A stretch of DNA of 64,000 bases. Source: Proteobacteria bacterium CG1_02_64_396. Its GTDB lineage: Bacteria > Pseudomonadota > MNWR01 > CG1-02-64-396. Positions 18,619-47,766 of the stretch are shown one piece after another. Each line of letters starts with the position of its first letter. Within the stretch, counting starts at the first letter, position 1. The translations under genes were made by a program, and so were the position numbers. Below the pieces are notes generated by a model, which worked only from the letters and a program-made list of their open reading frames with translations, was not told where the DNA came from and searched no databases. The stretch spans positions 5,673 to 69,672 of the forward strand of contig MNWR01000007.1 in the NCBI GenBank assembly GCA_001872725.1, read 5' to 3'.

Positions 18619-18661
18619 GAGCCGACCGACCTGCCACACACACAACTCCATTGGGGGGAAC

Positions 18662-19825
18662 ATGGCGTCGATACTGACAATGACGGCAGGTAGGGAGCAG
18701 CTTCTTCCCTACCTCAATCTACTCAACAAAACTGCCGACATCCGCCATCCCAACCGGCTGCTCGGTTCGGTCTACATTGAGGTCATGGAGGGGGCTAGCC
18801 TGCGTATGACCGCCAGCAACGGCAGTCACAGCCTGCGGGTGGCCACGGTGGTCGAGATGGAAGGTGCCGGTAGCCCTGCCCCCTTCTGCGTCGATGCCGA
18901 CCTGCTCTACCGCCTGTTTTCGGGCATCCCCTCTGGCGCCACCGTGCAGCTTCACCTTGAGGGGGACGAAGCCGGACGGGTGAGCGGTGTCCAGCTGGGA
19001 TGGAGCGGCAACAAGGCCAAATATCGCATCGCCGCGATTTCTGGGGACCAATTCCCCGCCCTGGCTTATCCCGAAGAGGTCTTCGTCCGCGCCATCGAGC
19101 CGGCCGCTTTTGCCCAGATGCTGCGCACCGTCGGTTTTGCCATGATGAAGGATCCCAACCGGGAGGCCTTCCACGGTTCTTTGGTGCAGTTTGCCCAAGG
19201 CGGGGACCGGGTGGTGGCGACCAACATGCACCTGCTGGCGATGTCGCAGCGGGGTTTGGGGTTGAGTGACGAGGCGCAAATCCAATCGATTGTCCCCTAC
19301 AACGCGGTGGGAGAGATCGTCGCGGTGGGGGAGATGGCCAAAGAGGGGAGCGGTCGCGTTACCATGGACCAAGACCATCTGCTCTTTCGGGTCGAGCGGC
19401 AGGGCGACACCGTCGATTTCGTTACCTCGGTGGTCAACAAACCCTTCCCCGAGTTTCAGCACCTCTTCCCGGCGGGGGAGGCTAACCGGCTGCTGCTGTC
19501 ACGCGACGACCTCTACGATGCGGTTAAACGTTTGAAAATCCTCTACTCGGTCGACCACCCTGCCATTACCTTCGAGGCCCAAGGTGACCAATTGAGCATC
19601 CACGCTGTCTCGGCCCAGAACGACGAGGGGCAAGAGGTTCTCTCGTTGCTGGAATCGGCCCCCGAGGTGCGGATCTCGTTCAACGGCGACTATATTGCCC
19701 AGATCGTCGAGCGCATCGACGAGGCGACCGTGGAGCTGCGGTTTGCCTCGGTCACCGGCCCGACCTTGATTCGGGGGGCCGACAACGAAGACCGGCAGTT
19801 CATTTTGCAACCGCTCGAAATCTAA
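18662..19825 (+). CDS. dnaN: DNA polymerase III beta sliding clamp
   Basis: ~387 aa with three-domain clamp architecture, immediately downstream of dnaA. Confidence 0.88.
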   Translation: MASILTMTAGREQLLPYLNLLNKTADIRHPNRLLGSVYIEVMEGASLRMTASNGSHSLRVATVVEMEGAGSPAPFCVDADLLYRLFSGIPSGATVQLHLEGDEAGRVSGVQLGWSGNKAKYRIAAISGDQFPALAYPEEVFVRAIEPAAFAQMLRTVGFAMMKDPNREAFHGSLVQFAQGGDRVVATNMHLLAMSQRGLGLSDEAQIQSIVPYNAVGEIVAVGEMAKEGSGRVTMDQDHLLFRVERQGDTVDFVTSVVNKPFPEFQHLFPAGEANRLLLSRDDLYDAVKRLKILYSVDHPAITFEAQGDQLSIHAVSAQNDEGQEVLSLLESAPEVRISFNGDYIAQIVERIDEATVELRFASVTGPTLIRGADNEDRQFILQPLEI

Positions 19826-19887
19826 TCCCGGTTTTTCACCGCCATGAGGCACTGTCCCCCAGGAGGATTTTGGACCATGCGAGGTAA

Positions 19888-22308
<2,421 letters not shown>

Positions 22309-28877: not shown

Positions 28878-29870
28878 ATGGAACGGACGACGGGAGTGAA
28901 CAGCTGGGCGAGCGCAATGCTGGTGGTGGGATTATTGACGGTGGCGGGATGCAACAGCGGAGGGGGTTCGAGCAGTTCGACGAGTTCAACCATTACCTAC
29001 TCGGGTTCAACTCAACCTGCGCAGATCGATACCACCAATGCCGGGACGGTGGCAGGGACCAGTGCAGGGGGAGCGGGGGCAGCCTCGGCGGTCGCGGCTG
29101 GGGCGGTTGCGACCCCCTCGTCGTCGGGTTCCGCATCCCACATCGGCCATCTTGTCGCCTCGTTGGCAAAGGAGAGGTACCAAACGTTTCCCCGTGGAAC
29201 GGGTCCGGCAGGGGTGACCTACAACCAGACGATCCCCGGCGCTGTGAGCGGTTCGATGACCGTCTCGGGGAGTGTGAACGCCACCACCCAGGTGGGTACG
29301 GTCACCATCGCATTCAATCAATACAACGATGGAGTTGGGAGCATGGACGGCAGCATGACCGTGCAGGTTGTCGGCTACGACATTGCAAGCGACACCATGA
29401 CCGATGCGACCATTCAGTTCGATCATTTGACCGTAAAGGATTCGGTGGACTGGTTTTCGATGAATGGTTCGATTGTCGATCGCGTCAATTTGACCAGCCA
29501 AACCGAGACCATGACCTCCAATCTCGACATGGTCGATCACTACCTCGGCGAATCGGTACGCTTTCAGAACTTCGTCATTGTTGACGTGTACGATTCTTTC
29601 CTCTTTCCGACCACCTACACCGAGACGGAGAACGGTCGGGTTTACATCTCCTCTTTTGGCTACGTCGACCTCACGACCGCTGCGCCCTTGGTCTACACCG
29701 AGGCGACTCAGGCCAATCCCGATTCGGGGGGGCCGATCACCATGACAGGCGCCAACAACAGTGCGGTTCGGCTTACCCCGGTGGACGCCACCAACGTTTT
29801 CGAAGAGGTTGATGCCAATGGCGACGGGGTCTTTGAGTTCAGCCAGACGGTAGCGTGGTCGAATTTGTGA
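28878..29870 (+). CDS. Hypothetical lipoprotein with an S/G/T/A-rich linker and a beta-rich domain
   Basis: Signal peptide plus lipobox (LLTVAG|C). A low-complexity linker (SGGGSSSSTSST… AGTSAGGAGAASAVAAGAVATPSSSGSAS) precedes a ~230-aa domain of unknown function. Confidence 0.6.
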   Translation: MERTTGVNSWASAMLVVGLLTVAGCNSGGGSSSSTSSTITYSGSTQPAQIDTTNAGTVAGTSAGGAGAASAVAAGAVATPSSSGSASHIGHLVASLAKERYQTFPRGTGPAGVTYNQTIPGAVSGSMTVSGSVNATTQVGTVTIAFNQYNDGVGSMDGSMTVQVVGYDIASDTMTDATIQFDHLTVKDSVDWFSMNGSIVDRVNLTSQTETMTSNLDMVDHYLGESVRFQNFVIVDVYDSFLFPTTYTETENGRVYISSFGYVDLTTAAPLVYTEATQANPDSGGPITMTGANNSAVRLTPVDATNVFEEVDANGDGVFEFSQTVAWSNL

Positions 29871-30330: not shown

Positions 30331-30453
30331 ATGGCGACTCAAGTCGGTCAAATCTATGTGTGCCCCTATTGCGGCAACGTGGTCGAGGTCAAGAAGGCGG
30401 GCGGCGGCACCCTGGTGTGCTGTGGCGCCCCCATGGCCATGCAGGCGGCTTGA
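30331..30453 (+). CDS. Desulforedoxin-like small metal-binding protein (40 aa), absent from the ORF track (<60 aa)
   Basis: [40 protein letters not shown] carries the desulforedoxin / Dfx N-domain Cys4 pattern (CxxC…GGGTLVCCG). AGGAG sits 7 nt upstream and an intrinsic terminator follows downstream. Confidence 0.6.
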
Positions 30454-30542: not shown

Positions 30543-30896
30543 TTAGCCGCGTTGCTCCATGCCGGCACCGGCTTTGGTCGCCTGAGCGGCCACCATGGTG
30601 GCGTTACCGGCAACCACCTTGTGCCAGGTCCCCTTGGGGGCCAGGACGACCGAACCGGCCTTCACCGCCACCGATTCCTCGGCGCCGCCCTCTTCTTGCA
30701 AGTAGAAGGTCCCCTCGCCCTGCATGAAGTAGAAAACCTGATCGCCGTTGGGGTGACGGTGCCAATCCAAAACGCTGTTGGCCTCGAAGTAGTACACGTC
30801 AGAGGCCAAATCGTCGGTCATGAGCAGGTTGATCTTGGGCACCGAACCGGGGGTGACGTTGATCGAATCGAGCAAGTTATGGACTTTGAGCGCCAT
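30543..30896 (-). CDS. Cupin-domain protein
   Basis: A 117-aa single cupin barrel with metal-site-like residues (WHRHPNGDQVFYFMQGEG… GTWHKV). Confidence 0.7.
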   Translation of the reverse strand: MALKVHNLLDSINVTPGSVPKINLLMTDDLASDVYYFEANSVLDWHRHPNGDQVFYFMQGEGTFYLQEEGGAEESVAVKAGSVVLAPKGTWHKVVAGNATMVAAQATKAGAGMEQRG

Positions 30897-32849: not shown

Positions 32850-33284
32850 ATGCAAGCATCGCGAAAACTCATGGCAACCTACACGGTCTTGCTGGAACTC
32901 GCCTATCGCGGCGGTACCGATCCGCGGCGGTTGCGCGATTTGCTCGAGGCCAACAATCTTTCGCCCCGCTACTTAGAGCCGGTGGTCCAGGCGCTGGTCA
33001 AAGAGGGGATTCTTGTCAGTCATCGCGGTCCCAAGGGGGGCTACGCCCTGGCTAAGAGCCGTCAAGAGGTCAACCTGGGTCAGGTTGCCCGTTTGGTGGC
33101 TGGGGTCGACCGGGAGGTCGACGAACAAGAGAGCGATCTGTTTGGGGTGGTGAAGGGGATCGTGCAAGAGGCCGAGGTCAAGGCGATGGTTTATCTGGAC
33201 GGTTTAACGCTGCAGGACCTGTGCAATCTGGCCTACCGCAGCGGCATCCACAACCCGTGGGCTATGGGTGATACGCCGATTTAG
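32850..33284 (+). CDS. Rrf2-family transcriptional regulator (CymR/IscR-like, no obvious Cys cluster)
   Basis: An N-terminal winged helix (…YTVLLELAYRGG… LSPRYLEPVVQALVKEGILVSHRGPKGGYALAK…). It lies immediately upstream of the sulfur-assimilation cluster. Confidence 0.75.
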   Translation: MQASRKLMATYTVLLELAYRGGTDPRRLRDLLEANNLSPRYLEPVVQALVKEGILVSHRGPKGGYALAKSRQEVNLGQVARLVAGVDREVDEQESDLFGVVKGIVQEAEVKAMVYLDGLTLQDLCNLAYRSGIHNPWAMGDTPI

Positions 33285-33338
33285 CTAAAAAATATTGTTG
33301 AATAAAAAAACAACAACATATTTTTTACGCAAAACTTT

Positions 33339-33367
33339 TTGACAAACCCATTTTCAATCCGTTTAAT
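33339..33367 (+). promoter_or_regulatory. Consensus-like sigma70 promoter in the AT-rich island upstream of the thrC-like gene, preceded by an imperfect palindrome that is a candidate Rrf2 operator
   Basis: TTGACA (33339–33344), a 17-nt spacer, then TTTAAT (33362–33367). Upstream lies AATATTGTTG…CAACAACATATT (~33296–33328). The 33285–33427 region is strikingly AT-rich in a 63% GC genome. Confidence 0.45.
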
Positions 33368-33427
33368 TCCATCTCGGACAACGCTTGCGCTGTCGGATGG
33401 CCAACGAACCATGCTGTGGAGTAGCGA

Positions 33428-34657
33428 ATGAGTTCTTTCGTGCGGGGGCTGCGTTGCCGTGAGTGTGGCGCCGAATACCCGGTTAATCCGGTCCATGTCT
33501 GCGAGTTCTGTTTTGGTCCCTTGGAGGTCGTTTACGACTATGAGGGGATGAAAGGGAAGATCAGCCGGGAGTCGATTGAATCCCGGCCTCAGACGATGTG
33601 GCGCTATCGCGAACTGTTGCCGGTCGATCAGGACCCGACCGTGGGTCGTCAGGTCGGCTGGACCCCTCTGGTCCACGCCAAGCGGCTGGGCAAGAAGCTG
33701 GGTCTGAACCACCTCTACATCAAATTCGACGGGATCTGCTATCCGACCCTGTCGTTCAAGGATCGGGTGGTTTCGGTGGCGCTCTCCAAAGCGGTTGAGT
33801 TCGGTTTCGACACCGTCGCCTGCGCCTCAACCGGCAACCTGGCCAACTCGGTGGCGGCCAACGCCGCCGCCTCGGGGCTGAAGTCCTACGTCTTCATCCC
33901 CCACGATCTGGAGCAGGGCAAGGTCCTTGGCTCGGCGATCTACGGCACCAACATGGTTGGAATCAAGGGGAGCTATGACGAGGTGAACCGGTTGTGCTCC
34001 GAGATCGCTGGCAACTACGGCTGGGGTTTCGTGAACATCAACCTGCGCCCCTTCTACGCCGAAGGGAGCAAGTCGCTGGCTTTTGAGTCGTTCGAGCAGT
34101 TGGGGTGGCGGATTCCCGACCACTTCATCGCCCCGATGGCCTCCGGCAGCCTGCTGACCAAGATCTGGAAGGCGCGCGAAGAGATGATTAAGTTGGGGCT
34201 GACTGCCGACACCCCGATGAAGATGCACGGGGCTCAGGCCGACGGTTGCGGCCCCATCGTCCGCGCCGTCGAGGCGGGAACCGAGCTCATCAAACCGGAG
34301 CGGCCAAGCACCATCGCCAAGTCGCTGGCGATTGGCAATCCGGCCGACGGCTTCTACGCCCAGCGCATCATCCGCGAGTCGGGGGGCGATGGTGCCTTGG
34401 TCAACGACGATGAAATCGTCGAGGCGATGCGCCTGGTCGCCGAAACCGAGGGGCTATTCACCGAGACTGCCGGTGGGGTGACCATCGGCACCTTGGTGAA
34501 GCTGGCCGAGCGGGGTCGCTTCAAACCCGACGAGGTGGTGGTTGTGGCGATCACCGGCAACGGCCTCAAGACCCAAGAGGCGATTGCCGACAAGTTGCAA
34601 AAGCCAACCCTGATCGAGCCCAAGTTGGCCGCGTTCGACGCGATCATGCAGGGTTAA
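33428..34657 (+). CDS. Threonine-synthase-family PLP enzyme with an N-terminal zinc-ribbon (ThrC-like)
   Basis: An N-terminal Cx2C…Cx2C (CRECGAEY…CEFCFGP) and the PLP-lysine motif SFKDRV. The glycine-rich region and overall fold belong to the ThrC family. 409 aa. Confidence 0.8.
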   Translation: MSSFVRGLRCRECGAEYPVNPVHVCEFCFGPLEVVYDYEGMKGKISRESIESRPQTMWRYRELLPVDQDPTVGRQVGWTPLVHAKRLGKKLGLNHLYIKFDGICYPTLSFKDRVVSVALSKAVEFGFDTVACASTGNLANSVAANAAASGLKSYVFIPHDLEQGKVLGSAIYGTNMVGIKGSYDEVNRLCSEIAGNYGWGFVNINLRPFYAEGSKSLAFESFEQLGWRIPDHFIAPMASGSLLTKIWKAREEMIKLGLTADTPMKMHGAQADGCGPIVRAVEAGTELIKPERPSTIAKSLAIGNPADGFYAQRIIRESGGDGALVNDDEIVEAMRLVAETEGLFTETAGGVTIGTLVKLAERGRFKPDEVVVVAITGNGLKTQEAIADKLQKPTLIEPKLAAFDAIMQG

Positions 34658-34726
34658 ATCAACCGACTATTCCAGCCCCAAGGGCTGCTCCCATTGACGA
34701 ACCAAGCATCGAGAAGGAGTACAACC

Positions 34727-35005
34727 ATGGCCGTTTCCGTTCGCATTCCCACCCCCTTGCGCAAGCTGACACAAGACGCCGACACCGTGAGCGGCGAGGG
34801 GGCAACCATCGCCGAGGTTCTGGGCGACCTGAACAATCAGTTCCCCGGCCTGAAAGAGCGTTTGTACGATGAGAGCGGGGCGCTGCGTCGCTTCGTCAAC
34901 GTCTACCTCAACGACGAAGACATCCGTTTCCTCAATGGCGATGCCACCGAGGTCAAGGCGGGTGATGAGCTTTCCATCGTTCCGGCCATCGCGGGCGGGT
35001 GTTGA
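34727..35005 (+). CDS. MoaD/ThiS-like ubiquitin-fold sulfur-carrier protein ending in GG-Cys
   Basis: A 92-aa beta-grasp protein (…VNVYLNDEDIRFLNGDATEVKAGDELSIVPAIAGGC*). ATG 34727 lies 7 nt after AAGGAG. The C-terminus is Gly-Gly followed by one extra Cys. Confidence 0.7.
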   Translation: MAVSVRIPTPLRKLTQDADTVSGEGATIAEVLGDLNNQFPGLKERLYDESGALRRFVNVYLNDEDIRFLNGDATEVKAGDELSIVPAIAGGC

Positions 35006-35039
35006 TCACTCCCGGTAGTACCCGAACGAGGGGACTGAG

Positions 35040-35279
35040 ATGAACAAGAAGATCTACCTAACCTTCCCCCCCGAGCAGATCTCGGAGCCGGTCATCTACA
35101 ACATCGGCCACAAATTCGAGGTGGTGACCAACATCCGCACCGCCTCGATCTCCCCCCAGGTTGGGGTGGTGGGGTTGGAGTTGTCGGGGGAGCCTGACCA
35201 AATCGAGGCGGCCATCGCCTACATCGAGTCCCTGGGCATTTTGGTGGAGCCTATCGAACTCGACGTCATCGAAGGCTGA
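35040..35279 (+). CDS. Standalone NIL-domain (MetN-C-terminal-like, ferredoxin-fold) protein
   Basis: 79 aa with a NIL-like pattern (…EPVIYNI…FEV..NI…[32 protein letters not shown]…). Standalone NIL proteins are known to co-occur with sulfur-carrier-protein pathways. Confidence 0.5.
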
Positions 35280-35307
35280 GTCGCTCACGCATTCATCGGA
35301 GTTCGTC

Positions 35308-36240
35308 ATGAGCCAGATTTACGATTCGATCGTCGACACTGTGGGCAACACCCCCTTGATCCGCCTCAACCGGGTGACCGAGGGGTTGGGGGCCACCGTG
35401 CTCGCCAAGGTGGAGTTCTTCAATCCCCTGGCGTCGGTGAAGGATCGCATCGCTCTGGCGATGATCGAGGCGGCTGAGCGCTCCGGCGATCTCAAGCCGG
35501 GCGGGCTGCTGGTGGAGCCGACCTCCGGCAATACCGGGATCGCGCTCGCTTTTGTGGCAGCGGCCAAGGGTTACCGGTTGATCCTGACCATGCCCGAATC
35601 GATGAGCCAGGAGCGGCGCAAGATGCTGGCGCTGTTGGGGGCCGAACTGGTGCTCACCCCCGCCGCTTTGGGGATGAAGGGCGCGGTCGAGAAGGCCAAA
35701 GAGATCACGGCCCAGACTCCGGGGGCGGTGATGCCCCAGCAGTTCGAGAACGCCGCCAACCCCGCAGCCCACGAGCGCACCACCGCCGAAGAGCTGTGGC
35801 GCGACACCGACGGCAACATCGACGCCCTGGTGGCGGGGGTGGGAACCGGCGGCACCATCACCGGGGTGAGCCGGGTGATCAAAACCCGCCGCGAGGGTTT
35901 TCAGGCCATTGCGGTGGAGCCCGCCGATTCGCCGGTGCTCGAAGGGGGTGCTCCGGGGCCGCACAAGATTCAGGGGATCGGCGCCGGATTCGTGCCGGGT
36001 GTGTTGCAGCGCGATCTGATCGACGAGGTCTTGCCGATCACCAACGACGAGGCCTTCGCCATGGCGCGAAGGATGGCGCGTGAGGAGGGTATTCCGTGCG
36101 GAATCTCCAGCGGAGCGGCGGTCGCCGCAGCGCTGAAGGTGGCCGCCCGGGACTCCATGGCGGGCAAAACCATCGTGGTGATTATTCCCAGCTTTGCCGA
36201 ACGGTATCTTTCCACCGACCTCTTCGCAGGCTTGGCCTGA
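35308..36240 (+). CDS. cysK: Cysteine synthase / O-acetylserine sulfhydrylase family (CysK/CysM-like)
   Basis: The PLP-lysine motif (…[22 protein letters not shown]…) and GTGGT (…[13 protein letters not shown]…). The true start is ATG 35308; the ORF-track 35161 is an upstream extension. Confidence 0.88.
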
Positions 36241-36273
36241 CGGTCGGGGCTTCAAACGAAAGTCATAAAAAAA

Positions 36274-37083
36274 ATGAACTTCACCGAAGAGCAAATCGAG
36301 CGCTACTCGCGCCACATCATCCTTCCCGAGATCGGCGGCCACGGTCAGGCCAAGCTGCTGGGGGCCAAGGTTTTCATGATCGGCGCCGGCGGCCTGGGCT
36401 CCCCGGTCGGGCTCTATCTGGCGGCTGCCGGGGTTGGCACCCTGGGAATTGCCGATGCCGACCACGTCGACCTGTCGAACCTGCAACGGCAAATTGCCCA
36501 CCGCACCGACACCGTCGGGGTCGATAAGGTCGAGTCGATCAAGCGGACCATCAACGCCATCAATCCCGATGTGAACGTGGTGACCTACCCCGAACGCATC
36601 ACCGCCGACAACATCCTGTCGATCATCCGCGACTACGACATCGTGGTGGACGGCTGTGACAACTTCCCGACCCGGTTTTTGGTCAACGACGCCTGCTTCT
36701 TCGAAAAGAAGACCCTGGTCTCGGGGGCGATCTTCCGTTGGGATGGTCAGGTGACCACCTTCCGTCCTCACCAGGACGAAAACGGCCCCTGTTACCGCTG
36801 TCTCTACCCTGAGCCCCCCCCTCCTGGGCTGGTCCCCTCGTGTTCGGAGGCTGGGATTTTGGGCGCCATCGCCGGGATCATCGGCACCATCCAGGCGGCC
36901 GAGGTGGTCAAAGAGATTCTTGGGGTTGGCCGCTCGCTGTCGGGCAGCTTGATGATTTACGACGCCTTGGATGCCCACTGGCGCAAGGTGAAGGTCCGCA
37001 AGGATCCCCATTGCCCCCTGTGTGGTCCCAACCCCACGGTGCGTGAGCTCATCACCTACGACCAGGCCTGTACCATCGGTTAA
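36274..37083 (+). CDS. MoeB/ThiF-family E1-like adenylyltransferase
   Basis: The ThiF nucleotide-binding motif (…KVFMIGAGGLGSPVGLYLAAAGVG…) and C-terminal CxxC pairs (CYRC… CPLC). Confidence 0.85.
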   Translation: MNFTEEQIERYSRHIILPEIGGHGQAKLLGAKVFMIGAGGLGSPVGLYLAAAGVGTLGIADADHVDLSNLQRQIAHRTDTVGVDKVESIKRTINAINPDVNVVTYPERITADNILSIIRDYDIVVDGCDNFPTRFLVNDACFFEKKTLVSGAIFRWDGQVTTFRPHQDENGPCYRCLYPEPPPPGLVPSCSEAGILGAIAGIIGTIQAAEVVKEILGVGRSLSGSLMIYDALDAHWRKVKVRKDPHCPLCGPNPTVRELITYDQACTIG

Positions 37084-37171
37084 ACAGTCGAATCCATACC
37101 GCAAAGGCGGGGCGCCTCGTGCGCCCCTCTTTTGTACCCTAGCCATAAGTAAATTTTAGAGGCCAATTAAA

Positions 37172-37975
37172 ATGATCTCTTCAAATAAGCTACACAACGA
37201 CTTCGAGCAGTTCGTCGCCCACCTCAACGCTCAGGAGGGGGAGATCGTCTTCGCCTCCTCCCTGGGGGCCGAGGATGTGGTCATCCACCACCTGCTGGCT
37301 CAGGTGAAACGGCCGGTGCGCATCATCACCCTAGATACCGGGCGGGTCTTCCCCGAGGTCTATTCCCTGATCCCCAAGCTCGAAGAGAAGTACAACCAGA
37401 AGATCGAGATCGTCTTCCCCGAGCGCAGCGATGTGGACGAATTTGTCGGCAAGTACGGCATCAACGGCTTCTACCATTCGGTCGAGGCCCGCAAGGGGTG
37501 CTGCCAGGCTCGCAAAATCAAGCCGCTGCGCCGCGCCCTGGCCGGAGCCGGGGCTTGGATCACCGGGGTGCGTCGGGAGCAGAACGACCACCGCAGCACC
37601 ATCGAGATGAAAGAGGACGACACCGTCTTCGGGCTGACCAAGTTCAACCCGCTCATCAATTGGAGCCAGGACGACGTTTGGGACTTCATTCGCGCTCAAG
37701 GCATCCCCTACAACCCGATGCACGACCGCGGTTTCCCCTCCATCGGCTGCCAGCCCTGCACCCGGGCGGTGGGGGAGGACGAGGATCCCCGCGCCGGGCG
37801 TTGGTGGTGGGAGTGCCGCAATTCGGGCAAGGCCGAGTGCGGTCTGCATTGGAACCCCGAGACCGGCAAGGCGGAGGCGACCTGCAAGGATCGCCCCCAT
37901 GCCGCCGCAGCTAAGAAGGAGGAAAAACCCTCCTTGACCAAGCTGCAACCGGTCCATTTCGGCGCCCATTGGTAA
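37172..37975 (+). CDS. cysH: Adenylylsulfate/phosphoadenylylsulfate reductase, Fe-S type (CysH)
   Basis: A PAPS-reductase fold (…ITLDTGRVFPE…) with a CC pair and a C-terminal CxxC (CCQARKIKP… SIGCQPCT…), which is typical of APS reductases. Confidence 0.85.
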   Translation: MISSNKLHNDFEQFVAHLNAQEGEIVFASSLGAEDVVIHHLLAQVKRPVRIITLDTGRVFPEVYSLIPKLEEKYNQKIEIVFPERSDVDEFVGKYGINGFYHSVEARKGCCQARKIKPLRRALAGAGAWITGVRREQNDHRSTIEMKEDDTVFGLTKFNPLINWSQDDVWDFIRAQGIPYNPMHDRGFPSIGCQPCTRAVGEDEDPRAGRWWWECRNSGKAECGLHWNPETGKAEATCKDRPHAAAAKKEEKPSLTKLQPVHFGAHW

Positions 37976-38045
37976 ACACGGTCGGGGTTTGTGTCTGACA
38001 TGCCCGATGCAGGCCCCCACCGCTTTCCCTCTCCAGGAGGTTGAA

Positions 38046-40289
38046 ATGACAACACCCGTCTGGGTCGATCGCGACGAGATCGACCGACTTGAACATACCC
38101 GCGTTGCTTCTCTGAACGGCAACGTCAGCGACGCGGTTTGGAACACCGAACGTCTGAAGCAGGGGATCTACGGTCAGCGTCAACCCGACGTGCACATGGT
38201 TCGCGCCAAACTGCCGGGGGGATCGATCTCCCCTCGGCAGCTGCGCGGTCTGGCCGATATCGTCGAGGCCGAGGCGATTGATGAGCCGCTGCTCCACGTC
38301 ACCACCCGGCAGGATCTGCAATTCCACTACATCCGCCCCGAACGGCTCGCCCCGGTGCTGCACAAAATGGGCGACTTGGGGCTGATTTCGCGCGAGGCCT
38401 GCGGCCACACGGTGCGCAATGTGACCACCTGCGCCCTGGCGGGGCGTTGCCCCCGTACTCGGGTCGACGGCCACGAGGTGGTCAGCGCCGTCATCCTGCA
38501 TTTTTTGCGGCACCCCCTGGGGCAGAACCTGCCGCGCAAATTCAAGATCGCGGTGGCGGGGTGTGAGTCGGACTGCGCCCTGGCCCCGATCAACGATGTT
38601 GGCCTGACCCCCACCGAGGATGGCTTCTTCCTGGCCGCTGCGGGTGGTTTGGGGCAGGCCCCCAAACCGGCGATCCCGCTGGGAAGCCTGCGCGACGAGG
38701 AGGTCTACCCCGCCATCGAGGCGCTGCTGCGCATTCACCATCGCCACTCCGACCGGGAGCGCCGAGCCCGCGCCCGGCTCAAATTTGTGGTCGAGTCGAT
38801 GGGGAGTGAGGCCTTCCAGGAGCTTTACTGGGAGGAGCGGGAGAACGTCGCCCCCTTCCATAGCGCCCAAGGGGGCGAAAGCTGGGCGCGTCGTACCCCC
38901 GATTTAACTGCGCCGGTCCCAGGTGTCAGCGGTTGGACCAAGCAGATCGACGGCAAGTGGGCTCGCGGCGTGGCGCTGCACAAGGGCGATCTCACACCCG
39001 CCCAGGCGCGGCAACTGGCCGACTTGGTCAGCGGTTTGGGGCTCGACGAGATTGTCCTGACCCAGGCTCAGAATCTGGTGATTGTCGATGTACCCGAAGC
39101 GCACAAAGGGGTGATCGACGAGGGGGTATTCGGCATTGAGGCTTTGATCCCCGCCGACATCGGGGTTTGCCCCGGTGCGGCGACCTGCCGTTTGGGCATC
39201 ACCCGCTCCCGCGATCTGGCCGATTCCGTCGCCGATCTGCCCTTGGGCGATCTCAAGGTGCGGATCTCCGGTTGTGCCAACGGCTGCGGCCACCACGCCA
39301 TCGCCGACTTCGGTCTGCATGGCTTGGCCCGCAAGCGCGACGGCCATTCGATTCCTGCCTACCAGATTCACGTGGGCGGTTCGGCCAGCGGCACCATGGT
39401 TCCGGGTCGCTCCTTGCCCCTGGTGGCGGCGGTTCATGCCCGCGAGGCGCTCAGCCGGTTGGTGGCCGCGTACAACATTGAGCGGCGCGAGGGGGAGTCG
39501 GTGCGGGGTTGGGCCGAACGGATTGGCCCCGAAACCCTTGAAGGTTTGGTGGCCGAGTTCGCCCCCGGCGAGGGGGAGCTCGAAGGGTTGCTCTTCGACT
39601 GGGGCTCCTTCGACCGCTTCTCGACCAAAGAGGTGGGCAAGGGGGAGTGCGCCGCCGCCCTGGTTTCGATGATCGGCGCCCACATGGGCGAGGCGATCTA
39701 CGAGTTGGGCCATGCCCAAACCCTGGCCGCCAAGGGGAGCGTCGCCGCCATCGAATTCGCCCATCGCGGCGTGGTGGCGGCGGTCCGCGCCCTGCTCACC
39801 TTGCGCGGTGAGGAGGAGGGCTCGTGGCAGTTCGGCGAGGAGGAGGCGCTGGCCGCCTTCGAGCGGGGACTGCAAAACACCGAGATGGTGCGCATCCACT
39901 TCACCCAGCTTTATGCCGCGCTGCGCCGCGCCCATCGGGGCGAGGTCGAACCCTTCGTGGCGATTGCCGCCAAGGTGATCGAGACGGTGCGCCGTGCGGT
40001 CGAAAGTCGCGACGGCAGCGACAATCTGCAACCCCCACCGCCCCCCAAGGTGGAGGCGGTCGCCCCCGAGACGGTGCTCGATCTCAAGGGGGTCGGCTGT
40101 CCGATCAACTTCGTTAAAACCAAGCTGCGGCTGGAGATGATGCCGGCCGCCAGCAAACTCACCGTCCTGCTCGACGACGGCCCCCCCATCGAAAACGTCC
40201 CCCTGAGTTTGGAGGGGGAGGGGCACGCCATCGAGGTCAAAGAGCCGTTTGAGGATCGTTGGAAAATCGTGGTGCGTAAGAAGGGGTAA
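38046..40289 (+). CDS. sir: Ferredoxin-dependent sulfite reductase (NirA/Sir hemoprotein family) fused to a C-terminal TusA-like sulfurtransferase domain
   Basis: The siroheme/4Fe-4S cysteine motif (…RISGCANGCGHHAIAD…) and duplicated NIR_SIR ferredoxin-like halves. The last ~75 aa (…LDLKGVGCPINFVKTKLRLEMM…LLDDGPPIENVP…GHAIEV…) match TusA/SirA. ATG 38046 is preceded by AGGAGG. Confidence 0.82.
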   Translation: MTTPVWVDRDEIDRLEHTRVASLNGNVSDAVWNTERLKQGIYGQRQPDVHMVRAKLPGGSISPRQLRGLADIVEAEAIDEPLLHVTTRQDLQFHYIRPERLAPVLHKMGDLGLISREACGHTVRNVTTCALAGRCPRTRVDGHEVVSAVILHFLRHPLGQNLPRKFKIAVAGCESDCALAPINDVGLTPTEDGFFLAAAGGLGQAPKPAIPLGSLRDEEVYPAIEALLRIHHRHSDRERRARARLKFVVESMGSEAFQELYWEERENVAPFHSAQGGESWARRTPDLTAPVPGVSGWTKQIDGKWARGVALHKGDLTPAQARQLADLVSGLGLDEIVLTQAQNLVIVDVPEAHKGVIDEGVFGIEALIPADIGVCPGAATCRLGITRSRDLADSVADLPLGDLKVRISGCANGCGHHAIADFGLHGLARKRDGHSIPAYQIHVGGSASGTMVPGRSLPLVAAVHAREALSRLVAAYNIERREGESVRGWAERIGPETLEGLVAEFAPGEGELEGLLFDWGSFDRFSTKEVGKGECAAALVSMIGAHMGEAIYELGHAQTLAAKGSVAAIEFAHRGVVAAVRALLTLRGEEEGSWQFGEEEALAAFERGLQNTEMVRIHFTQLYAALRRAHRGEVEPFVAIAAKVIETVRRAVESRDGSDNLQPPPPPKVEAVAPETVLDLKGVGCPINFVKTKLRLEMMPAASKLTVLLDDGPPIENVPLSLEGEGHAIEVKEPFEDRWKIVVRKKG

Positions 40290-40400
40290 TTCCGGTCATA
40301 CGGGGGGGCGGGAGCGCCGATCCAGCCTACTCGGTCCCGGAATGACGGCGCCATGTTTGCGACCTAAACGCCTGTATGGCCCAGAAAACAGAGGAACACC

Positions 40401-41570
40401 ATGCAATTGATTCCCCCCCACGGCGGACGCCTGATCAACCGTTGGGCCGACCTTGAAGATGTGCAGGTCCAGGCGATCCTGGGCCGACCCAATCCACTGA
40501 AGATCGAACTCGACGACGTGCGGCTGTGCGATCTGGAGTGTCTGGCCGACGGCGCCCTCTCCCCCCTCGAAGGGTTTATGGGGGAGAAGGAATACCATCA
40601 GGTGCTCGATGTGATGGAGCTGCCCGAGGGGCTGGTTTGGCCCTTCCCCATCGTTTTGCCGGTGACCCAGGCGGTGGCGAAGCAAACCGAGCCGGGGCAG
40701 AAGGTGCTTTTGACCGGCGCCGGGCAAACCCTGGGTTGGATCGAAGTGAGCGGGTACTTCAAACGCAACCCCACCAAGGAGGCCAACCGGATCTACGGCA
40801 CCCTGGAGGAGGATCACCCCGGCGTGAAGCGGGTGATGTCGGAGCCGGAGTACGCCCTGGCGGGATCGGTGACGGTGGTCCGTCTGCCCGAGCGACCCTT
40901 CCCGGAGCAACGACTCACTCCGGTCCAGACGCGGGCCGAGTTCGTCAAGCGGGGCTGGAAAACGGTGGTCGCTTTTCAGACCCGCAATCCGATCCATCGG
41001 GCCCACGAATACATCACCAAGTGCGCCCTTGAGGTGGTCGACGGGTTGCTCATCCACCCACTGGTGGGGACAACCAAAAGCGACGACATCCCGGCCGATG
41101 TGCGCATGAAGTGCTACGAGCGGTTGATGCGCGATTACTACCCAGCCGACCGCACCATGCTCTCGGTTTTTCCGGCGGCGATGCGTTACGCCGGGCCGCG
41201 TGAGGCGCTCTTCCACGCCATCGTGCGCAAGAACTACGGCTGTACCCACTTGATCGTGGGACGCGACCACGCCGGGGTGGGCGACTACTACCATCCGTTT
41301 GCCGCCCATGCGATTTTTGACCGTTTCGAGCCGGGCGACATCGGTATCATCCCGCTGCGTTTCGACGCCACCTTCTATTGCAAGCAGTGTGCAGCGATGG
41401 CGTCGTACAAAACCTGCCCCCACGATGGGGAGCACCATGTCGCCCTGTCGGGGACCAAGGTGCGCAAGATGCTCGGCGAGGGGGTCCACCCCCCGGCGGA
41501 GTTCTCCCGCCCCGAGGTGGCGGCGATTTTGGTCGAGTCCTACCGGCAACGGTTCGATCCCGGGATTTGA
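40401..41570 (+). CDS. sat: Sulfate adenylyltransferase (ATP sulfurylase)
   Basis: The QTRNPIHRAHE motif and the GRDHAG(V)G motif. 389 aa. Confidence 0.88.
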   Translation: MQLIPPHGGRLINRWADLEDVQVQAILGRPNPLKIELDDVRLCDLECLADGALSPLEGFMGEKEYHQVLDVMELPEGLVWPFPIVLPVTQAVAKQTEPGQKVLLTGAGQTLGWIEVSGYFKRNPTKEANRIYGTLEEDHPGVKRVMSEPEYALAGSVTVVRLPERPFPEQRLTPVQTRAEFVKRGWKTVVAFQTRNPIHRAHEYITKCALEVVDGLLIHPLVGTTKSDDIPADVRMKCYERLMRDYYPADRTMLSVFPAAMRYAGPREALFHAIVRKNYGCTHLIVGRDHAGVGDYYHPFAAHAIFDRFEPGDIGIIPLRFDATFYCKQCAAMASYKTCPHDGEHHVALSGTKVRKMLGEGVHPPAEFSRPEVAAILVESYRQRFDPGI

Positions 41571-41596
41571 GGAATTGCTCCTGGTGACGCAGACAA

Positions 41597-41629
41597 GGCC
41601 GGCCGCAAGGTCGGCTTTTTTTTGGGAGA
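41597..41629 (+). terminator. Intrinsic terminator after sat
   Basis: AAGGCCGGCC-GCAA-GGTCGGC followed by TTTTTTTT. Confidence 0.5.
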
Positions 41630-41635
41630 AATGCC

Positions 41636-42910
41636 ATGAGCAAAAATCATGGTTTGTTCATCGCGGCGTTGATCGCCGTCGTCCTCTGGTTCGCCCAGCC
41701 CTGGATCGCTCCGGCCTGGAGCGCAACCTCGTGGCATGCCCTGGTCATCGCCCTGTTCGTCATGGCGTTGTGGGTGGGGCAGTTTTTACCGTTGCCGGTC
41801 ACCGGTCTGCTCGCGGTCACCCTGATCGTGGTGGCCGGGGTTCTCCCCGCCAAGGCCGCCTTTGCCGCGTTTGCCCAGCCGACCCTGTTTTTCATCATCG
41901 GCGCCCTGGCGCTGGCGGTGGGGGTGGAGGAGAGCGGCCTGGGGCGCACCATCGCCTGCAAGGTCTTCCACGCCGCCAAACCGACGGTGGGGGGGGTGCG
42001 GCGCGCCACCCTATGGGGGAGCGCGGCGCTGGCGCTGGTGATTCCCGAACACGCGGTCGCCGCCGTGGTGATCCCCATGGCGACCCAGATCATCCCCAAG
42101 GGGAGCAAACACCCCAGCATCATCCTGGCCGCCGCTCTGGGGGCGGTGATCGGGGGGATCGTCACCTTCCTGGGGGGCGCCCGGAATATTCTGGCGGTGT
42201 CGATCCTTGAGGAATTCCAGGGGACGGGGATCGCCCACGGCACCTGGATCCTCGACGCCCTGCCGGTGGCGGCCTTGATTCTGCTGCTGGCCGATCTGCT
42301 GCTGACCCGTTTGGAACCGGGTTCGACCCCTTTGACCCTTCCCGAACATTGCCCAACGACTGCGCAGGGAAAACGTATGGCTTGGGTCATGGCCGCCGCG
42401 ATTGCCGCCTGGGCTTTTTGGGGCGAAACGGTGGGGCTGGCCCCCATCGCCCTGGCCGCCACGGTGGCGATGGTGGTCTTCAAGGCGGCCAAGTGGGAGG
42501 CGGTTTCTAAGCATCTGCCCTGGGGGGTGGTGCTGATGTTCGGCGGGGCGCTGGCCATGGGGGGGGCGCTGGCCCAAAGCGGGGCGGCGGCCAACATCGC
42601 CGCCTACACCCCCGATTCGGTGGGTCTTGCCGCCGCCATGTCGATGATTTTGACCCAGGGGATCAGCAACGCCGCCGCCGTGGCGACCTTGCTGCCCATC
42701 CTGTTGCCCGGCTCTTCCGATCCCATCGCCACGACCCTGGCCATCGCCCTGGGTGGAGGGCTCGCCTTCGCCCTGCCGATGGGCGCGCCCGCCATTGCCA
42801 TTGCCTGGGCGACCGGGCAGGTGACGATGGGACAACTGGTGCGCATCGGGGTCACCTTGGGGATCGCCTCGTGGTTCATCCTCATGGGGGCAGCCGCTTG
42901 GTGGTGGTGA
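41636..42910 (+). CDS. Anion permease of the ArsB/NhaD/DASS (SLC13-like) superfamily, putative sulfate transporter
   Basis: A 424-aa polytopic protein with a two-repeat topology. Its position right after sat fits sulfate uptake, but this is inference. Confidence 0.65.
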   Translation: MSKNHGLFIAALIAVVLWFAQPWIAPAWSATSWHALVIALFVMALWVGQFLPLPVTGLLAVTLIVVAGVLPAKAAFAAFAQPTLFFIIGALALAVGVEESGLGRTIACKVFHAAKPTVGGVRRATLWGSAALALVIPEHAVAAVVIPMATQIIPKGSKHPSIILAAALGAVIGGIVTFLGGARNILAVSILEEFQGTGIAHGTWILDALPVAALILLLADLLLTRLEPGSTPLTLPEHCPTTAQGKRMAWVMAAAIAAWAFWGETVGLAPIALAATVAMVVFKAAKWEAVSKHLPWGVVLMFGGALAMGGALAQSGAAANIAAYTPDSVGLAAAMSMILTQGISNAAAVATLLPILLPGSSDPIATTLAIALGGGLAFALPMGAPAIAIAWATGQVTMGQLVRIGVTLGIASWFILMGAAAWWW

Positions 42911-42914
42911 GGTA

Positions 42915-42941
42915 GGTCGGACAGGTCGGACCTGTCCGACC
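42915..42941. other. Perfect 11-bp hairpin after the permease gene
   Basis: GGTCGGACAGG-TCGGA-CCTGTCCGACC, with no strong U-tract. Confidence 0.35.
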
Positions 42942-42995
42942 CTCCCCTTTCGAGGTTATCCTGACCCCCCGTCACGGATTCCCCCGGAGCCCACC

Positions 42996-44045
42996 ATGGA
43001 CCTCTACCGTCCCCGCGATACCTCGGGCCTGAAGCCCATCCTCTACTTCCACGCCATGGCCCACCTCGGCATCGAGGGGTTGGTGATCGTCGAACCGAGC
43101 GACCGTTTCGTCAGCGTCGGCTTCTTCGACGACACCGCCAAGATCGTCGATCTCGACCGCTGCCACGCCCTGGGTTTGCCGGTGATGCGCCGCGAGGTGG
43201 GGGGCGGGGCGGTGCTCCTCGGTCCCGGCCAGGTCTTCTACCACCTGGTGATGCAGCGGGGCAGCCACGGCATTCCGGTGCAGGTCGACGAGGCCTACAA
43301 GGTGCTCTCCATCCCCCCCATCGAGACCTATGCCCACTTCGGGGTCGAGGCGCGCTACCGCCCGATCAACGACCTCATCACCCCCGAGGGGCGCAAGATT
43401 TCGGGGCAGGGGGCGGCCGACATCGGCAAATGCTTCGTCTTCGTTGGCTCGATCCTGCGCCATTTCGACGTCGCGACGATGACCCAGGTGCTGCGGGTCC
43501 CCGACGAGAAATTCCGCGACAAAATCTTCAAAACCATGGATGAAAACATGAGCTGGCTGGAGCGGGAGAGTCAGGCCCGCCCCACCTCGCGGGAGGTGGG
43601 CGACGTGCTGGCCGCCTCTTTTGGCCGATTGCTTGGTCCGCTGCATGAAAAGGTGCTCCCCCCCGAGGCGATCACACTGGCCGAGCAACTGGGGGGGGAA
43701 TTCACCAGCGACGAGTTTTTGTTCGAAGAGACCCCCCGCCGCCACGAGGCGATCAAGATTCGGGAGGGGGTCTATCTGCGCCAGGGGATGCACAAGGCGC
43801 GGGGGGGATTGATCTGGGCCGAGGTCGAGGTGGCGGAGGATCGCATCGCGGCGCTCAAGATCGGTGGCGACTTCACCTTCATCCCCAAGGGGGACTTTGC
43901 GCCGCTGCAAGACCACCTGATCGGCGCCCCCTTCGAGGTGGAAACGGTGGCCAGCAGCATCGCCCGTTTCATGGCCGAACGTGCCGTCGAAACGCCGGGG
44001 GTGCTTCCCTGCGATTTTGCCCAAGCGATTGTGGGGCAAGGATGA
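42996..44045 (+). CDS. Lipoate-protein ligase family protein (BPL/LplA/LipB catalytic-domain fold)
   Basis: A mixed LplA/LipB-like core (…RREVGGGAVLLGPGQVFYH…) and an accessory C-terminal domain. 349 aa. Confidence 0.7.
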   Translation: MDLYRPRDTSGLKPILYFHAMAHLGIEGLVIVEPSDRFVSVGFFDDTAKIVDLDRCHALGLPVMRREVGGGAVLLGPGQVFYHLVMQRGSHGIPVQVDEAYKVLSIPPIETYAHFGVEARYRPINDLITPEGRKISGQGAADIGKCFVFVGSILRHFDVATMTQVLRVPDEKFRDKIFKTMDENMSWLERESQARPTSREVGDVLAASFGRLLGPLHEKVLPPEAITLAEQLGGEFTSDEFLFEETPRRHEAIKIREGVYLRQGMHKARGGLIWAEVEVAEDRIAALKIGGDFTFIPKGDFAPLQDHLIGAPFEVETVASSIARFMAERAVETPGVLPCDFAQAIVGQG

Positions 44046-46480: not shown

Positions 46481-47044
46481 CTAAAACCGAATTCCCAGAT
46501 CGAACGCAGCGGTCACCACCCGGATCTTTCCCCCCGAATTGGGGAAATAGGTGGTTTCGTAACCCTGGGTGGGACGTGCGCCCAAGGCGAGGTTGAGCAC
46601 CACGGTCGATCCTTGATAACCAAAGCCCAGGATCCCCTCGACCCCGCCGGCATTGTAACTGGCCGTGCCGACCACCCCTGAGATGTGGTCGGAATAGCCC
46701 CCCAGACCGATGTAACCGTTCCACCCCTGGCGCCAATTCGTCCCCAGCAAAAGCGACAACTCCCCCCCAGTCATTTTGACGCTGCTTCCCCCCAATGGGC
46801 TGGCTTTGCTGCCACCGCTCCCCTTGAGCATGTAGTAGCGCAACTGAAAGGCGAGGTTGTCGCTGGCGGGAATCAAAGCCTGAAGCCCAGGGCCGTTCAG
46901 CAGGTCGGTGGTGTTGGCGCTGCTGGTGTCGACCACCTGCATCGCCATACCCGAAACCCCAATCGAGGTGGCGGGAATCTCTCGGGCTTGAGCAGTGGCG
47001 GCGCTGCCGAGGATCAGCAGCAAAGCAATGGCGGAGCGGGACAT
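46481..47044 (-). CDS. Outer-membrane beta-barrel protein (small porin/OmpA-like barrel), paralog 1
   Basis: A signal peptide (…AATAQA), an alternating-hydrophobic Gly/Ser/Thr-rich pattern and a C-terminal aromatic (…LGIRF). 187 aa. Confidence 0.65.
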   Translation of the reverse strand: MSRSAIALLLILGSAATAQAREIPATSIGVSGMAMQVVDTSSANTTDLLNGPGLQALIPASDNLAFQLRYYMLKGSGGSKASPLGGSSVKMTGGELSLLLGTNWRQGWNGYIGLGGYSDHISGVVGTASYNAGGVEGILGFGYQGSTVVLNLALGARPTQGYETTYFPNSGGKIRVVTAAFDLGIRF

Positions 47045-47196: not shown

Positions 47197-47766
47197 TCAG
47201 AAGAAGAAGGACAGATCCAAGGAGGCCGATGAGGCAGCCGTATTGCCGGTCCCGAAGAAGATGTCAGTGTCGTATTTGCTGGCGGACCGAATCGCTACAG
47301 AAAAATCGATGGCGAGGAAGCCGCCGTTATAGCCAAGCCCAAGCACCCCCATGCCGCCGGAGAAGGAGTTCGAGCTGGCACCCGAGGTCGAATTGCCGAA
47401 TTTTTCAGAAAATCCACCCGCCCCAACATACAGATTGCCCCCCTGGGCCCAATTCGTGCCGAAGAGAATGGCGAAATCGGCGCCCGTGAGGGTGATGTTA
47501 TTGCTGCTCAGAATGGTCCCTTTGCCGTCCTGAACCCCTTTTAGGGAATAGAAGTGTGCCCGCAGAGCTATGGTTTCATCGAAGGGGAGGGTGCCCACGA
47601 GGGCGCCGCCCGAGAAGGTGTCGGTCGTCGAAATAATGTCGGTGTTGACGATGGCGACGGCATAACTGCCGATACCGATCGAGGCGCGCGGGCCATCCTC
47701 GGCTTGAGCCGAGAGCGGCGCTGCGAGAGCGAGAAGGACTGCGGCGGTCGTGGCGATTCGTTTCAT
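47197..47766 (-). CDS. Outer-membrane beta-barrel protein, paralog 2 (tandem duplicate of 46481..47044)
   Basis: Same architecture and shared blocks (…FGTNW.QG.N.Y.G.GG…, C-terminal FFF). An RBS GGAGAGAG lies upstream. Confidence 0.65.
   Translation of the reverse strand: MKRIATTAAVLLALAAPLSAQAEDGPRASIGIGSYAVAIVNTDIISTTDTFSGGALVGTLPFDETIALRAHFYSLKGVQDGKGTILSSNNITLTGADFAILFGTNWAQGGNLYVGAGGFSEKFGNSTSGASSNSFSGGMGVLGLGYNGGFLAIDFSVAIRSASKYDTDIFFGTGNTAASSASLDLSFFF

Follow-up and report, generated by a model that had tools for sequence, protein, structure and literature searches.

What is a gene annotated as a threonine synthase, followed by a small ThiS-like protein, doing among the genes of sulfate reduction? 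The question is raised by a stretch of 64,000 nucleotides of the uncultured Proteobacteria bacterium CG1_02_64_396 (contig MNWR01000007.1, positions 5,673 to 69,672 of the forward strand), referred to below, at its full length, as the window. Between positions 32850 and 44045, eleven genes lie on the + strand and encode an Rrf2-family regulator, a ThrC-like pyridoxal phosphate (PLP) enzyme, a ThiS-like carrier, a NIL-domain protein, CysK, a ThiF/MoeB-type E1 enzyme, an adenosine phosphosulfate (APS) reductase, a sulfite reductase fused to TusA (Sir-TusA), an ATP sulfurylase, an anion permease and an LplA-like protein. Each of them returns family matches far above chance in Pfam and NCBIfam profile searches, and the list of contiguous, co-oriented sulfur genes drawn up in an earlier sequence-only reading is thus recovered in full. 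Gene content and conservation make it probable, in our judgment, that this is a composite sulfur-assimilation region, in which a homocysteine-forming module of the MetM/MetO type (a ThrC homologue with its ThiS-like carrier) is combined with sulfate reduction, a TusA relay and a NIL partner.

A cluster shared with Zetaproteobacteria

The gene models agree with independent gene calls in four public assemblies of CG1_02_64_396, one of which matches the window at 100% identity across 22,244 nucleotides, and the cluster is therefore not an assembly artefact. Starts were corrected for the carrier (34727, ATG), CysK (35308, ATG) and Sir-TusA (38046). The nearest relatives belong to the Mariprofundaceae/Zetaproteobacteria, with ~70% identity for the ThrC-like protein and ~40% for Sir-TusA. 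In Mariprofundus erugo and related metagenome contigs, the ThrC-like, ThiS, NIL, CysK, ThiF and Sir-TusA genes are found in this order, followed by a permease and by CysH/CysD/CysN. Since the core order recurs in M. erugo and other Zetaproteobacteria, the cluster is real and well beyond chance; the gene-neighbourhood survey that the sequence-only reading had proposed as a check finds its core order again in Mariprofundaceae. For a wider comparison, a locus scan with the ThrC-like protein, in which each species was represented by a single genome, gave 80 loci spread over many phyla (55-67% identity). Enough downstream sequence is available for 73 of them, on which the neighbour counts given below are based. 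Alignments of 37 MetM and of 11 NIL sequences were too divergent for locus scanning, and narrower alignments were used instead. The genome content of CG1_02_64_396 itself was judged within the 64-kb window.

The MetM-like enzyme

The ThrC-like PLP enzyme (33428..34657, + strand), a candidate homocysteine synthase of the MetM type, is a 409-residue protein with the ThrC fold (PALP, 225 bits) and a zinc-ribbon match in Pfam. This N-terminal ribbon comprises four cysteines arranged as CxxC...CxxC and is kept in 57 of 83 relatives. A ThiS-like gene is present in 67 of the 73 orthologue loci, mostly directly downstream of the ThrC-like gene. Moreover, an Rfam scan reports an S-adenosylmethionine (SAM) riboswitch (RF00162, 62-88 bits) directly upstream of the orthologue in 11 out of 25 loci, which originate from Verrucomicrobiota, Planctomycetota, Kiritimatiellae and Actinomycetota (L011, L012, L014, L016, L020, L026, L028, L038, L068, L071 and L077; 58-64% identity). 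The genes concerned are annotated 'threonine synthase', and yet a SAM riboswitch at this place fits a methionine-pathway gene and not a threonine synthase. Five loci encode a ribbon-less canonical ThrC in addition to the orthologue, three of them right after NIL. These canonical copies score 162-222 bits against the window protein, whereas the orthologues reach 530-600 bits, and the two groups also differ by a motif, FKDRVVS in the orthologues versus FKDRGMT in canonical ThrC. Of the loci surveyed, the Thermodesulfovibrio-like ones (L027, L041 and L056) have a canonical thrC immediately 3' of NIL.

A pathway using such an enzyme has been described in Streptomyces albulus. The ThrC homologue MetM is reported there to convert O-phosphohomoserine to homocysteine by means of a thiocarboxylate formed on the ThiS-like carrier MetO, with the help of Mec and MoeZ (Hasebe et al. 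2024, Appl Environ Microbiol 90:e01247-24; PMC11497804), and a SAM riboswitch is reported upstream of metM. GapMind 2026 accepts the MetM/MetO/Mec/MoeZ pathway and flags MetM as commonly misannotated as threonine synthase. From sequence and gene context we conclude that the ThrC-like/ThiS-like pair of the window is a predicted MetM/MetO-type module.

The carrier, its E1 enzyme and the adjoining CysK

Downstream of the MetM-like gene, the MetO/CysO-like sulfur-carrier protein (34727..35005, + strand; 92 residues) is assigned to ThiS by Pfam, and its closest solved structures are the CysO proteins of A. orientalis (4N6E_B, 81 bits) and M. tuberculosis (3DWG_C, 79 bits). Its C-terminus reads AIAGG-C, one residue past the Gly-Gly, while the MetO proteins of related loci end in GG-C, GG-R or GG-EV. 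Because the carrier extends beyond the GG, a processing peptidase is needed. JAMM open reading frames (ORFs), which could encode such a peptidase, are present in 14 of the 73 related loci, and the CG1_02_64_396 genome may hold a Mec/JAMM peptidase gene outside the window.

The ThiF/MoeB-type E1 adenylyltransferase (36274..37083, + strand; 269 residues; ThiF Pfam, 270 bits) carries a CxxC...CxxC pattern and the crossover-loop cysteine, and is devoid of a rhodanese domain. NCBIfam analysis aligns it to the rhodanese-MoeB model PRK08762 at positions 120-384 only, that is, to the E1 part, and the rhodanese-fused E1 of the MoeZ type by which the MetM/MetO pathway is recognized is thus not found at this locus. 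The ThiS-like protein, the E1 and the ThrC-like enzyme together make up a carrier-protein module adjoining a complete APS-type sulfate reduction pathway, as the sequence-only reading had it. Other arrangements of the E1 are found in related loci. MetO-ThiF fusions, with the GG internal, occur at L055 (11232-12299) and L102 (7823 onward). The Nitrospira-type loci (L031, L035, L043, L053, L061 and L084) display the order CysK-ThiF-MetM-MetO-NIL-ThiF, in which two E1 paralogues flank the module, and in five of these six a JAMM ORF follows it.

The CysK gene (35308..36240, + strand; 310 residues) encodes an ordinary O-acetylserine sulfhydrylase, of the CysK1 type. It passes the CysK equivalog TIGR01139 (456 bits, cut-off 351) and fails the two E. 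coli-type CysM models scored (291-303 bits, cut-offs 394-413). The solved structure nearest to it is that of M. tuberculosis CysK1 (2Q3B, 401 bits), an enzyme that uses sulfide and O-acetylserine, while the carrier-dependent M. tuberculosis CysM is not among its best 60 solved relatives. The proposed supply of two different PLP enzymes by the carrier is thus left unsupported at the window locus. Across the related loci, the cluster-associated genes with a cysteine-synthase fold divide into two classes, a CysK1-like one in Zetaproteobacteria and Nitrospira, and a CysM-like one in loci that also carry JAMM peptidases and MetO-NIL fusions. Where a CysM-like enzyme lies next to a JAMM peptidase, the carrier may feed two enzymes after all.

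The NIL protein as a third partner

The stand-alone NIL-domain protein (35040..35279, + strand; NIL Pfam, 53 bits) comprises 79 residues and not a single cysteine. A NIL gene is located downstream of MetO in 51 of the 73 MetM genome loci. In the reverse test, a metagenome search with NIL alone in which only loci with enough upstream sequence were counted, MetO is found upstream in 58 out of 62 loci and the ThrC-like gene in 34 out of 39. Furthermore, MetO and NIL are fused in a single frame, MetO first and the GG internal, in 9 genome loci and 13 metagenome loci. A JAMM-motif ORF lies near all 8 complete genome-locus fusions (L008, L009, L010, L013, L021, L037, L045 and L054), which implies that cleavage behind the GG would free one NIL per carrier. 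The link between NIL and the carrier module suspected from the window alone therefore holds in both search directions and through the fusions, and NIL is a dedicated and conserved third partner of the MetM/MetO module. It is absent from the pathway steps listed by GapMind. In their layout, the MetO-NIL fusions with a JAMM ORF resemble ubiquitin-fusion precursors.

Among solved structures, only the methionine-binding C2 domains of MetN are returned as relatives of NIL, at marginal sequence similarity (E = 0.17). NIL-ferredoxin proteins (MA1822, DvMF_0262) are needed, on genetic evidence, for the DUF39 route to homocysteine, which is unrelated. Both cases share the same Pfam domain and tie NIL to methionine/homocysteine metabolism, whereas the window NIL is a stand-alone protein of 79 residues, or elsewhere the C-terminal part of a carrier fusion, without a ferredoxin or ATPase domain. 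Our best guess is a subunit with an ACT-like fold that senses or binds a small ligand or serves as an adaptor, and not a sulfur carrier. Indeed, a role as a second sulfur carrier was considered and rejected, cysteine being absent from the window NIL and from two aligned Mariprofundaceae NIL proteins, and the C-terminal residue of the family varying between E, G and S. Likewise rejected was a role in place of riboswitch control, as the SAM riboswitch is found in 5 of 15 NIL-containing loci versus 6 of 10 NIL-lacking ones.

Sulfate reduction and the Sir-TusA fusion

Downstream of ThiF, the APS reductase CysH (37172..37975, + strand) exhibits the Fe-S ligand pattern CC...CxxC and the ECGLH motif, and clears TIGR02055 (249 bits, cut-off 235). 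Beyond the Sir-TusA gene, the ATP sulfurylase is of the Sat type (40401..41570, + strand), with PUA_2 and ATP-sulfurylase domains in Pfam (331 and 148 bits) and 531 bits on NF003166 (cut-off 387). The DASS-family anion permease (41636..42910, + strand; CitMHS and Na_sulph_symp in Pfam), presumably the sulfate importer, scores 168 bits on the DASS model, under its cut-off of 198.6, and belongs to the same family as the permease of the Mariprofundaceae clusters. With Sat, an Fe-S APS reductase and a siroheme Sir, the assimilatory APS-route set is complete, and APS kinase is not needed.

The Sir-TusA fusion (38046..40289, + strand; 747 residues) is 100% identical to a deposited protein and is composed of three parts. 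The first (38046..39560, + strand) is a siroheme/[4Fe-4S] sulfite reductase domain resembling NirA/SirA, for which Pfam reports NIR_SIR and NIR_SIR_ferr in two stretches each. Among solved structures, M. tuberculosis NirA (1ZJ8) comes closest to it, and the Sir cysteines align with the NirA cluster ligands. A Cx5C...Cx3C motif is found in both Sir halves (Cys 129/135/173/177 and 375/381/410/414), all eight cysteines being invariant in 35 sequences. In M. tuberculosis NirA, this motif occurs in the C-terminal half only, and the N-terminal Sir half resembles the small single-module Sir proteins that stand beside TusA in other phyla. The second part (39561..40067, + strand) is a linker with an invariant K-G-E-C(535)-A motif followed by a helical bundle, as judged by alignment and AlphaFold. 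Residues 512-537 are modelled as disordered, with low confidence, and helices span residues ~534-657. This linker/helical region returns no match with Pfam or any known family and, like the Sir-TusA fusion with which it occurs, is confined to zetaproteobacterial-type loci. The third part (40068..40289, + strand) is the TusA domain (TusA Pfam, 54 bits) with an invariant Cys685-Pro686.

Among the 120 matches listed, the fusion is kept in every zetaproteobacterial-type homologue, and the lone exception is a 1002-residue gammaproteobacterial protein without TusA. In loci from other phyla, a small Sir consisting of a single module and an unfused TusA lie between MetM and MetO (L013, L024, L091, L107 and L109), so that the partnership of Sir with TusA arose, or persists, independently of the fusion. 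In the neighbourhoods combining ThiS, JAB, E1 and sulfate-assimilation genes that were described by Iyer, Burroughs and Aravind in 2006 (PMC1779556), the E1 is always rhodanese-less and SirA (TusA) always present, and SirA was predicted to fill the rhodanese role. The TusA fusion had been set aside as unexplained in the sequence-only reading. TusA as such fits the role predicted for SirA, while the Sir-linker-TusA fusion is still unexplained. Because ThiF has no rhodanese domain, the TusA carried by Sir is a likely relay to the MetO adenylate, and the most economical proposal, by analogy with those neighbourhoods, is that it would pass reduced sulfur to it from Sir.

Mariprofundaceae clusters hold one further gene, located between Sir-TusA and the DASS permease, which encodes a radical-SAM protein (NCBIfam variant_rSAM, MSMEG_0568-like, with a weak LipS2 match) at L001 (16486-19125), L002 (16215-17429) and L007 (7270 onward). 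In M. erugo and L007, the radical-SAM protein and the permease form one fused protein of about 880-900 residues. No homologue of this radical-SAM gene was found in the window.

Regulation and transcription units

The first gene of the region (32850..33284, + strand; Rrf2 Pfam, 70 bits) encodes an Rrf2-family protein with a single cysteine, and hence without the three-cysteine set of Fe-S ligands; for this reason it resembles the cluster-less CymR type. The CymR model is its second-best NCBIfam match. CymR of Bacillus subtilis is reportedly an Rrf2 regulator of cysteine metabolism that acts in complex with CysK. Both proteins share the Rrf2 fold without the three-cysteine cluster ligands and lie beside sulfur amino-acid genes including cysK, whereas the window protein stays far under the CymR cut-off (58 versus 195 bits). 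An Rrf2 match is found in 5 of the 73 genome loci; in 3 of these it immediately precedes MetM, as it does in about 10 metagenome loci.

The spacer that follows (33286..33340, neither strand assigned) is AT-rich and contains four overlapping imperfect palindromes (I1-I4) identified by an inverted-repeat search; the operator or promoter of the MetM unit may lie here. Consensus matching reports a terminator-like site between ThiF and CysH (37109..37134, + strand), made of a GC-rich hairpin and TCTTTTG, and another between Sat and the permease (41595..41625, + strand), made of a hairpin and a T8 run. A strong hairpin also lies 3' of the permease (42913-42940). Hairpins after ThiF, Sat and the permease suggest three or four transcripts and speak against one uninterrupted message, so the single operon initially proposed is not favoured; the region probably comprises three or four transcription units, controlled by the Rrf2 protein of CymR-like type.

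Proposed pathway and alternatives

From the gene identities, conservation, riboswitch linkage of orthologues and fusions obtained here, we infer every chemical step of the following pathway, along with the TusA relay and the role of NIL. Unit B (APS reductase, Sir-TusA and ATP sulfurylase) and the DASS permease would import sulfate and reduce it via APS and sulfite. Unit A would comprise the MetM-like, MetO-like, NIL, CysK and ThiF genes. A peptidase encoded elsewhere would first trim the extra C-terminal cysteine of the MetO-like carrier, the C-terminal glycine of which would then be adenylated by ThiF. The Sir-fused TusA, perhaps with the invariant linker cysteine, would hand reduced sulfur from the siroheme site to this MetO adenylate, and the acyl-adenylate would thereby become a thiocarboxylate. 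The zinc-ribbon ThrC paralogue would use the carrier thiocarboxylate and O-phosphohomoserine to form homocysteine, as in the MetM/MetO pathway, while CysK would make cysteine by the ordinary route from O-acetylserine and free reduced sulfur. NIL would act as a stoichiometric partner of the carrier module.

Several observations weigh against this pathway. The window protein clears the NCBI thrC equivalog model TIGR00260. Its connection to S. albulus MetM is an indirect chain via cyanobacterial orthologues, which are 57-60% identical to it, a Microcystis orthologue being reported to share 51.6% identity with MetM; in the study of that orthologue, threonine-related activities and no clear MetM activity were obtained in vitro. 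No SAM riboswitch is found in the window, where the Rrf2 gene takes its place. With a carrier ending in GG-C, a search of the six frames of the 64 kb for a JAMM/Mec motif reported no credible ORF, the two weak pattern matches lying within dnaA and within an unannotated ORF of 111 codons. As for the transcript boundaries, terminator-like sites are no more numerous in the window than in shuffled sequence. The chemistry of the relay is a further difficulty, as TusA normally carries persulfide sulfur while the textbook product of Sir is sulfide.

A 2026 study claims S0, and not H2S, as the direct product of assimilatory sulfite reductases, TusA being unmentioned there (PMC13188885). One may imagine a closed, sulfide-free channel from sulfite to homocysteine, in which the zetaproteobacterial Sir-TusA fusion would at no point let free sulfide escape. 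Partly reduced, zero-valent sulfur would be drawn from the siroheme site as a persulfide on Cys685 of TusA, with Cys535 as resolving or partner thiol, and be delivered directly to the ThiF-bound MetO adenylate, NIL being an obligatory docking or gating subunit at the hand-over from MetO to MetM. We regard this elaboration as rather unlikely and offer it as speculation; if true, the channel would be a natural test case for the S0 claim.

Three other explanations of the locus can be weighed against the homocysteine pathway. The closest to it, which we deem unlikely, is that both PLP enzymes draw on a single carrier thiocarboxylate, the ThrC-like one giving homocysteine and the CysK-like one giving cysteine, as with CysO/CysM of Mycobacterium. 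The location of CysK between NIL and ThiF, in an order conserved across Zetaproteobacteria, argues for it, as do the carrier, which is as close to M. tuberculosis CysO as to any solved protein, and those lineages in which a CysM-like enzyme beside a JAMM peptidase echoes the mec-cysO-cysM operon. The identity of the window enzyme speaks against it: the enzyme is of the CysK1 type by its equivalog score and by its similarity to the sulfide-using M. tuberculosis CysK1, it fails both E. coli-type CysM models scored, and M. tuberculosis CysM falls outside its best 60 solved relatives. In addition, the window encodes no Mec that would hydrolyse the carrier-cysteine adduct.

Far less credit can be given to the view that the ThrC-like protein is an ordinary threonine synthase, with the ThiS-like protein and ThiF working for molybdopterin, for thiamin or in tRNA thiolation and clustering with it only by reason of a shared sulfur supply. 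Besides TIGR00260, all public annotations say threonine synthase, the closest solved structures are threonine synthases, and a second thrC is not visible within the 64-kb window. It is difficult to reconcile this very improbable account with orthologues placed under SAM riboswitches, with the five loci that hold a canonical ThrC besides the orthologue, three of them within the same cluster, or with the nearly universal pairing with a CysO-like carrier, and GapMind notes that MetM is commonly misannotated in exactly this way. Lower still do we rank the idea that the ThiS-like protein and the E1 form a ubiquitin-like conjugation system, resembling SAMP/UbaA, which would modify sulfur enzymes instead of carrying sulfur. 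The carrier does just clear the SAMP1 equivalog (62.3 bits, cut-off 60), the E1 reaches 330 bits on the UbaA model, and the occurrence of MetO-NIL and MetO-ThiF fusions with JAMM peptidases recalls the processing of ubiquitin fusions. That UbaA score, in contrast, lies below the cut-off of 450, and a metabolic role is indicated by the close association with a PLP enzyme and with SAM riboswitches. Archaeal SAMPs, moreover, act as sulfur carriers as well.

Genes around the cluster

The last of the eleven genes (42996..44045, + strand) encodes a divergent member of the LplA family (LplA-B_cat, 101 bits) that does not pass the LplA model TIGR00545 (87 bits, cut-off 280). A SPOR-domain gene begins at 44042, in overlap with the stop of this gene. 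The LplA-like gene is absent from the Mariprofundaceae clusters, a distant match being found in only 1 of the 73 MetM loci, and its homologues in Acidimicrobiales and Aquificae sit in unrelated contexts, away from sulfur genes. Membership of the system, for example in a lipoate-dependent sulfur pathway, was accordingly rejected on gene context. The sequence-only reading had counted this gene as an extra member of the cluster; it is not conserved with it and, judging from context, is probably a neighbour and not a part of the system.

Elsewhere, the dnaA-dnaN-gyrB genes (17257-22308) put the window near the chromosomal origin, and the remaining window is housekeeping DNA. Just upstream of the sulfur region lies the gene for a NAD-specific glutamate dehydrogenase of 1560 residues (23897-28579). 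A putative lipoprotein of 330 residues, rich in Ser, Thr and Gly and without a Pfam match, is encoded at 28878-29870 (+ strand). A 40-residue gene with a desulforedoxin-like (Desulfoferrod_N) domain, called in public assemblies, is found at 30331-30453 (+ strand; L087, 2286-2408) and adjoins a cupin gene (30543-30896, - strand). Downstream of the cluster, two adjacent paralogous ORFs (46481-47044 and 47197-47766, - strand) encode proteins of ~188 residues with signal-peptide-like N-termini and no Pfam match listed, which may be small outer-membrane β-barrel proteins.

Comparison with known systems and significance

The S. albulus MetM/MetO system resembles the window in that a ThrC-homologous PLP enzyme adjoins a ThiS/MoaD-like carrier ending in GG and one or more extra residues, an E1 adenylyltransferase is required, and orthologues of the window enzyme, though not the window gene itself, lie behind SAM riboswitches. 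The window differs by its E1 without the MoeZ rhodanese, for which the Sir-fused TusA is the presumed substitute, by the lack of a nearby Mec, by the additional NIL partner, by an Rrf2 gene in place of the riboswitch, and by the full sulfate-reduction set in which the module is embedded. CysO-CysM-Mec-MoeZ of M. tuberculosis likewise places a CysO-like carrier beside an enzyme with a cysteine-synthase fold and an E1; unlike this system, the window has a CysK1-type and not a CysM-type enzyme, has no Mec, and has an E1 without rhodanese.

A related carrier-based homocysteine system is reportedly that of Wolinella succinogenes, composed of HcyS, HcyF, HcyD and MetY. For the sulfate-reduction half of the region, the closest precedent is class 4e of Iyer et al. 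(PMC1779556), in which sulfate transport, ATP sulfurylase, (P)APS reductase, Sir, a ThiS-like carrier, a rhodanese-less E1 and a TusA-type domain occur together, and in which sulfur is likewise predicted to end on the carrier. Two members of that class, a JAB peptidase and an O-acetylhomoserine sulfhydrylase, were not found in the window. In contrast with class 4e and Wolinella, the acceptor enzyme of the window would be a ThrC paralogue using O-phosphohomoserine in place of MetY, and NIL is present. TusA is fused to Sir here, whereas the 2006 paper noted ThiS-Sir fusions in some actinobacteria. The cluster is a combination of the known MetM/MetO pathway with this 2006 class of sulfate-assimilation/ThiS neighbourhoods, and the NIL partner and the Sir-linker-TusA fusion are its unexplained conserved extras. 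The belief that the whole combination was uncharacterized hence does not hold in principle for the route, given the MetM/MetO work of 2024 and the neighbourhoods of PMC1779556; for NIL as a partner in the pathway, no earlier description was found. A link between ThrC and ThiS genes that had been credited to the 2006 paper could not be verified there, as neither 'ThrC' nor 'threonine synthase' occurs anywhere in PMC1779556.

Both extras have a bearing beyond this locus. Assigning the role of NIL would complete the pathway and may illuminate the unexplained NIL-ferredoxin proteins of the DUF39 homocysteine route, and the Sir-TusA fusion offers an experimental handle on how reduced sulfur leaves an assimilatory Sir, as sulfide or as persulfide. 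A representative search with the ThrC-like protein gives, at E <= 1e-30, 1,784 cluster representatives. Across many phyla, the 'threonine synthase' annotations of the zinc-ribbon clade, thousands in number, probably designate a homocysteine synthase, and 'threonine synthase' genes led by a riboswitch flag a widespread misannotation of MetM-like enzymes. Their reannotation alters the reconstruction of the methionine pathway in Zetaproteobacteria, Nitrospirota, Verrucomicrobiota, Planctomycetota, Chloroflexota and cyanobacteria.

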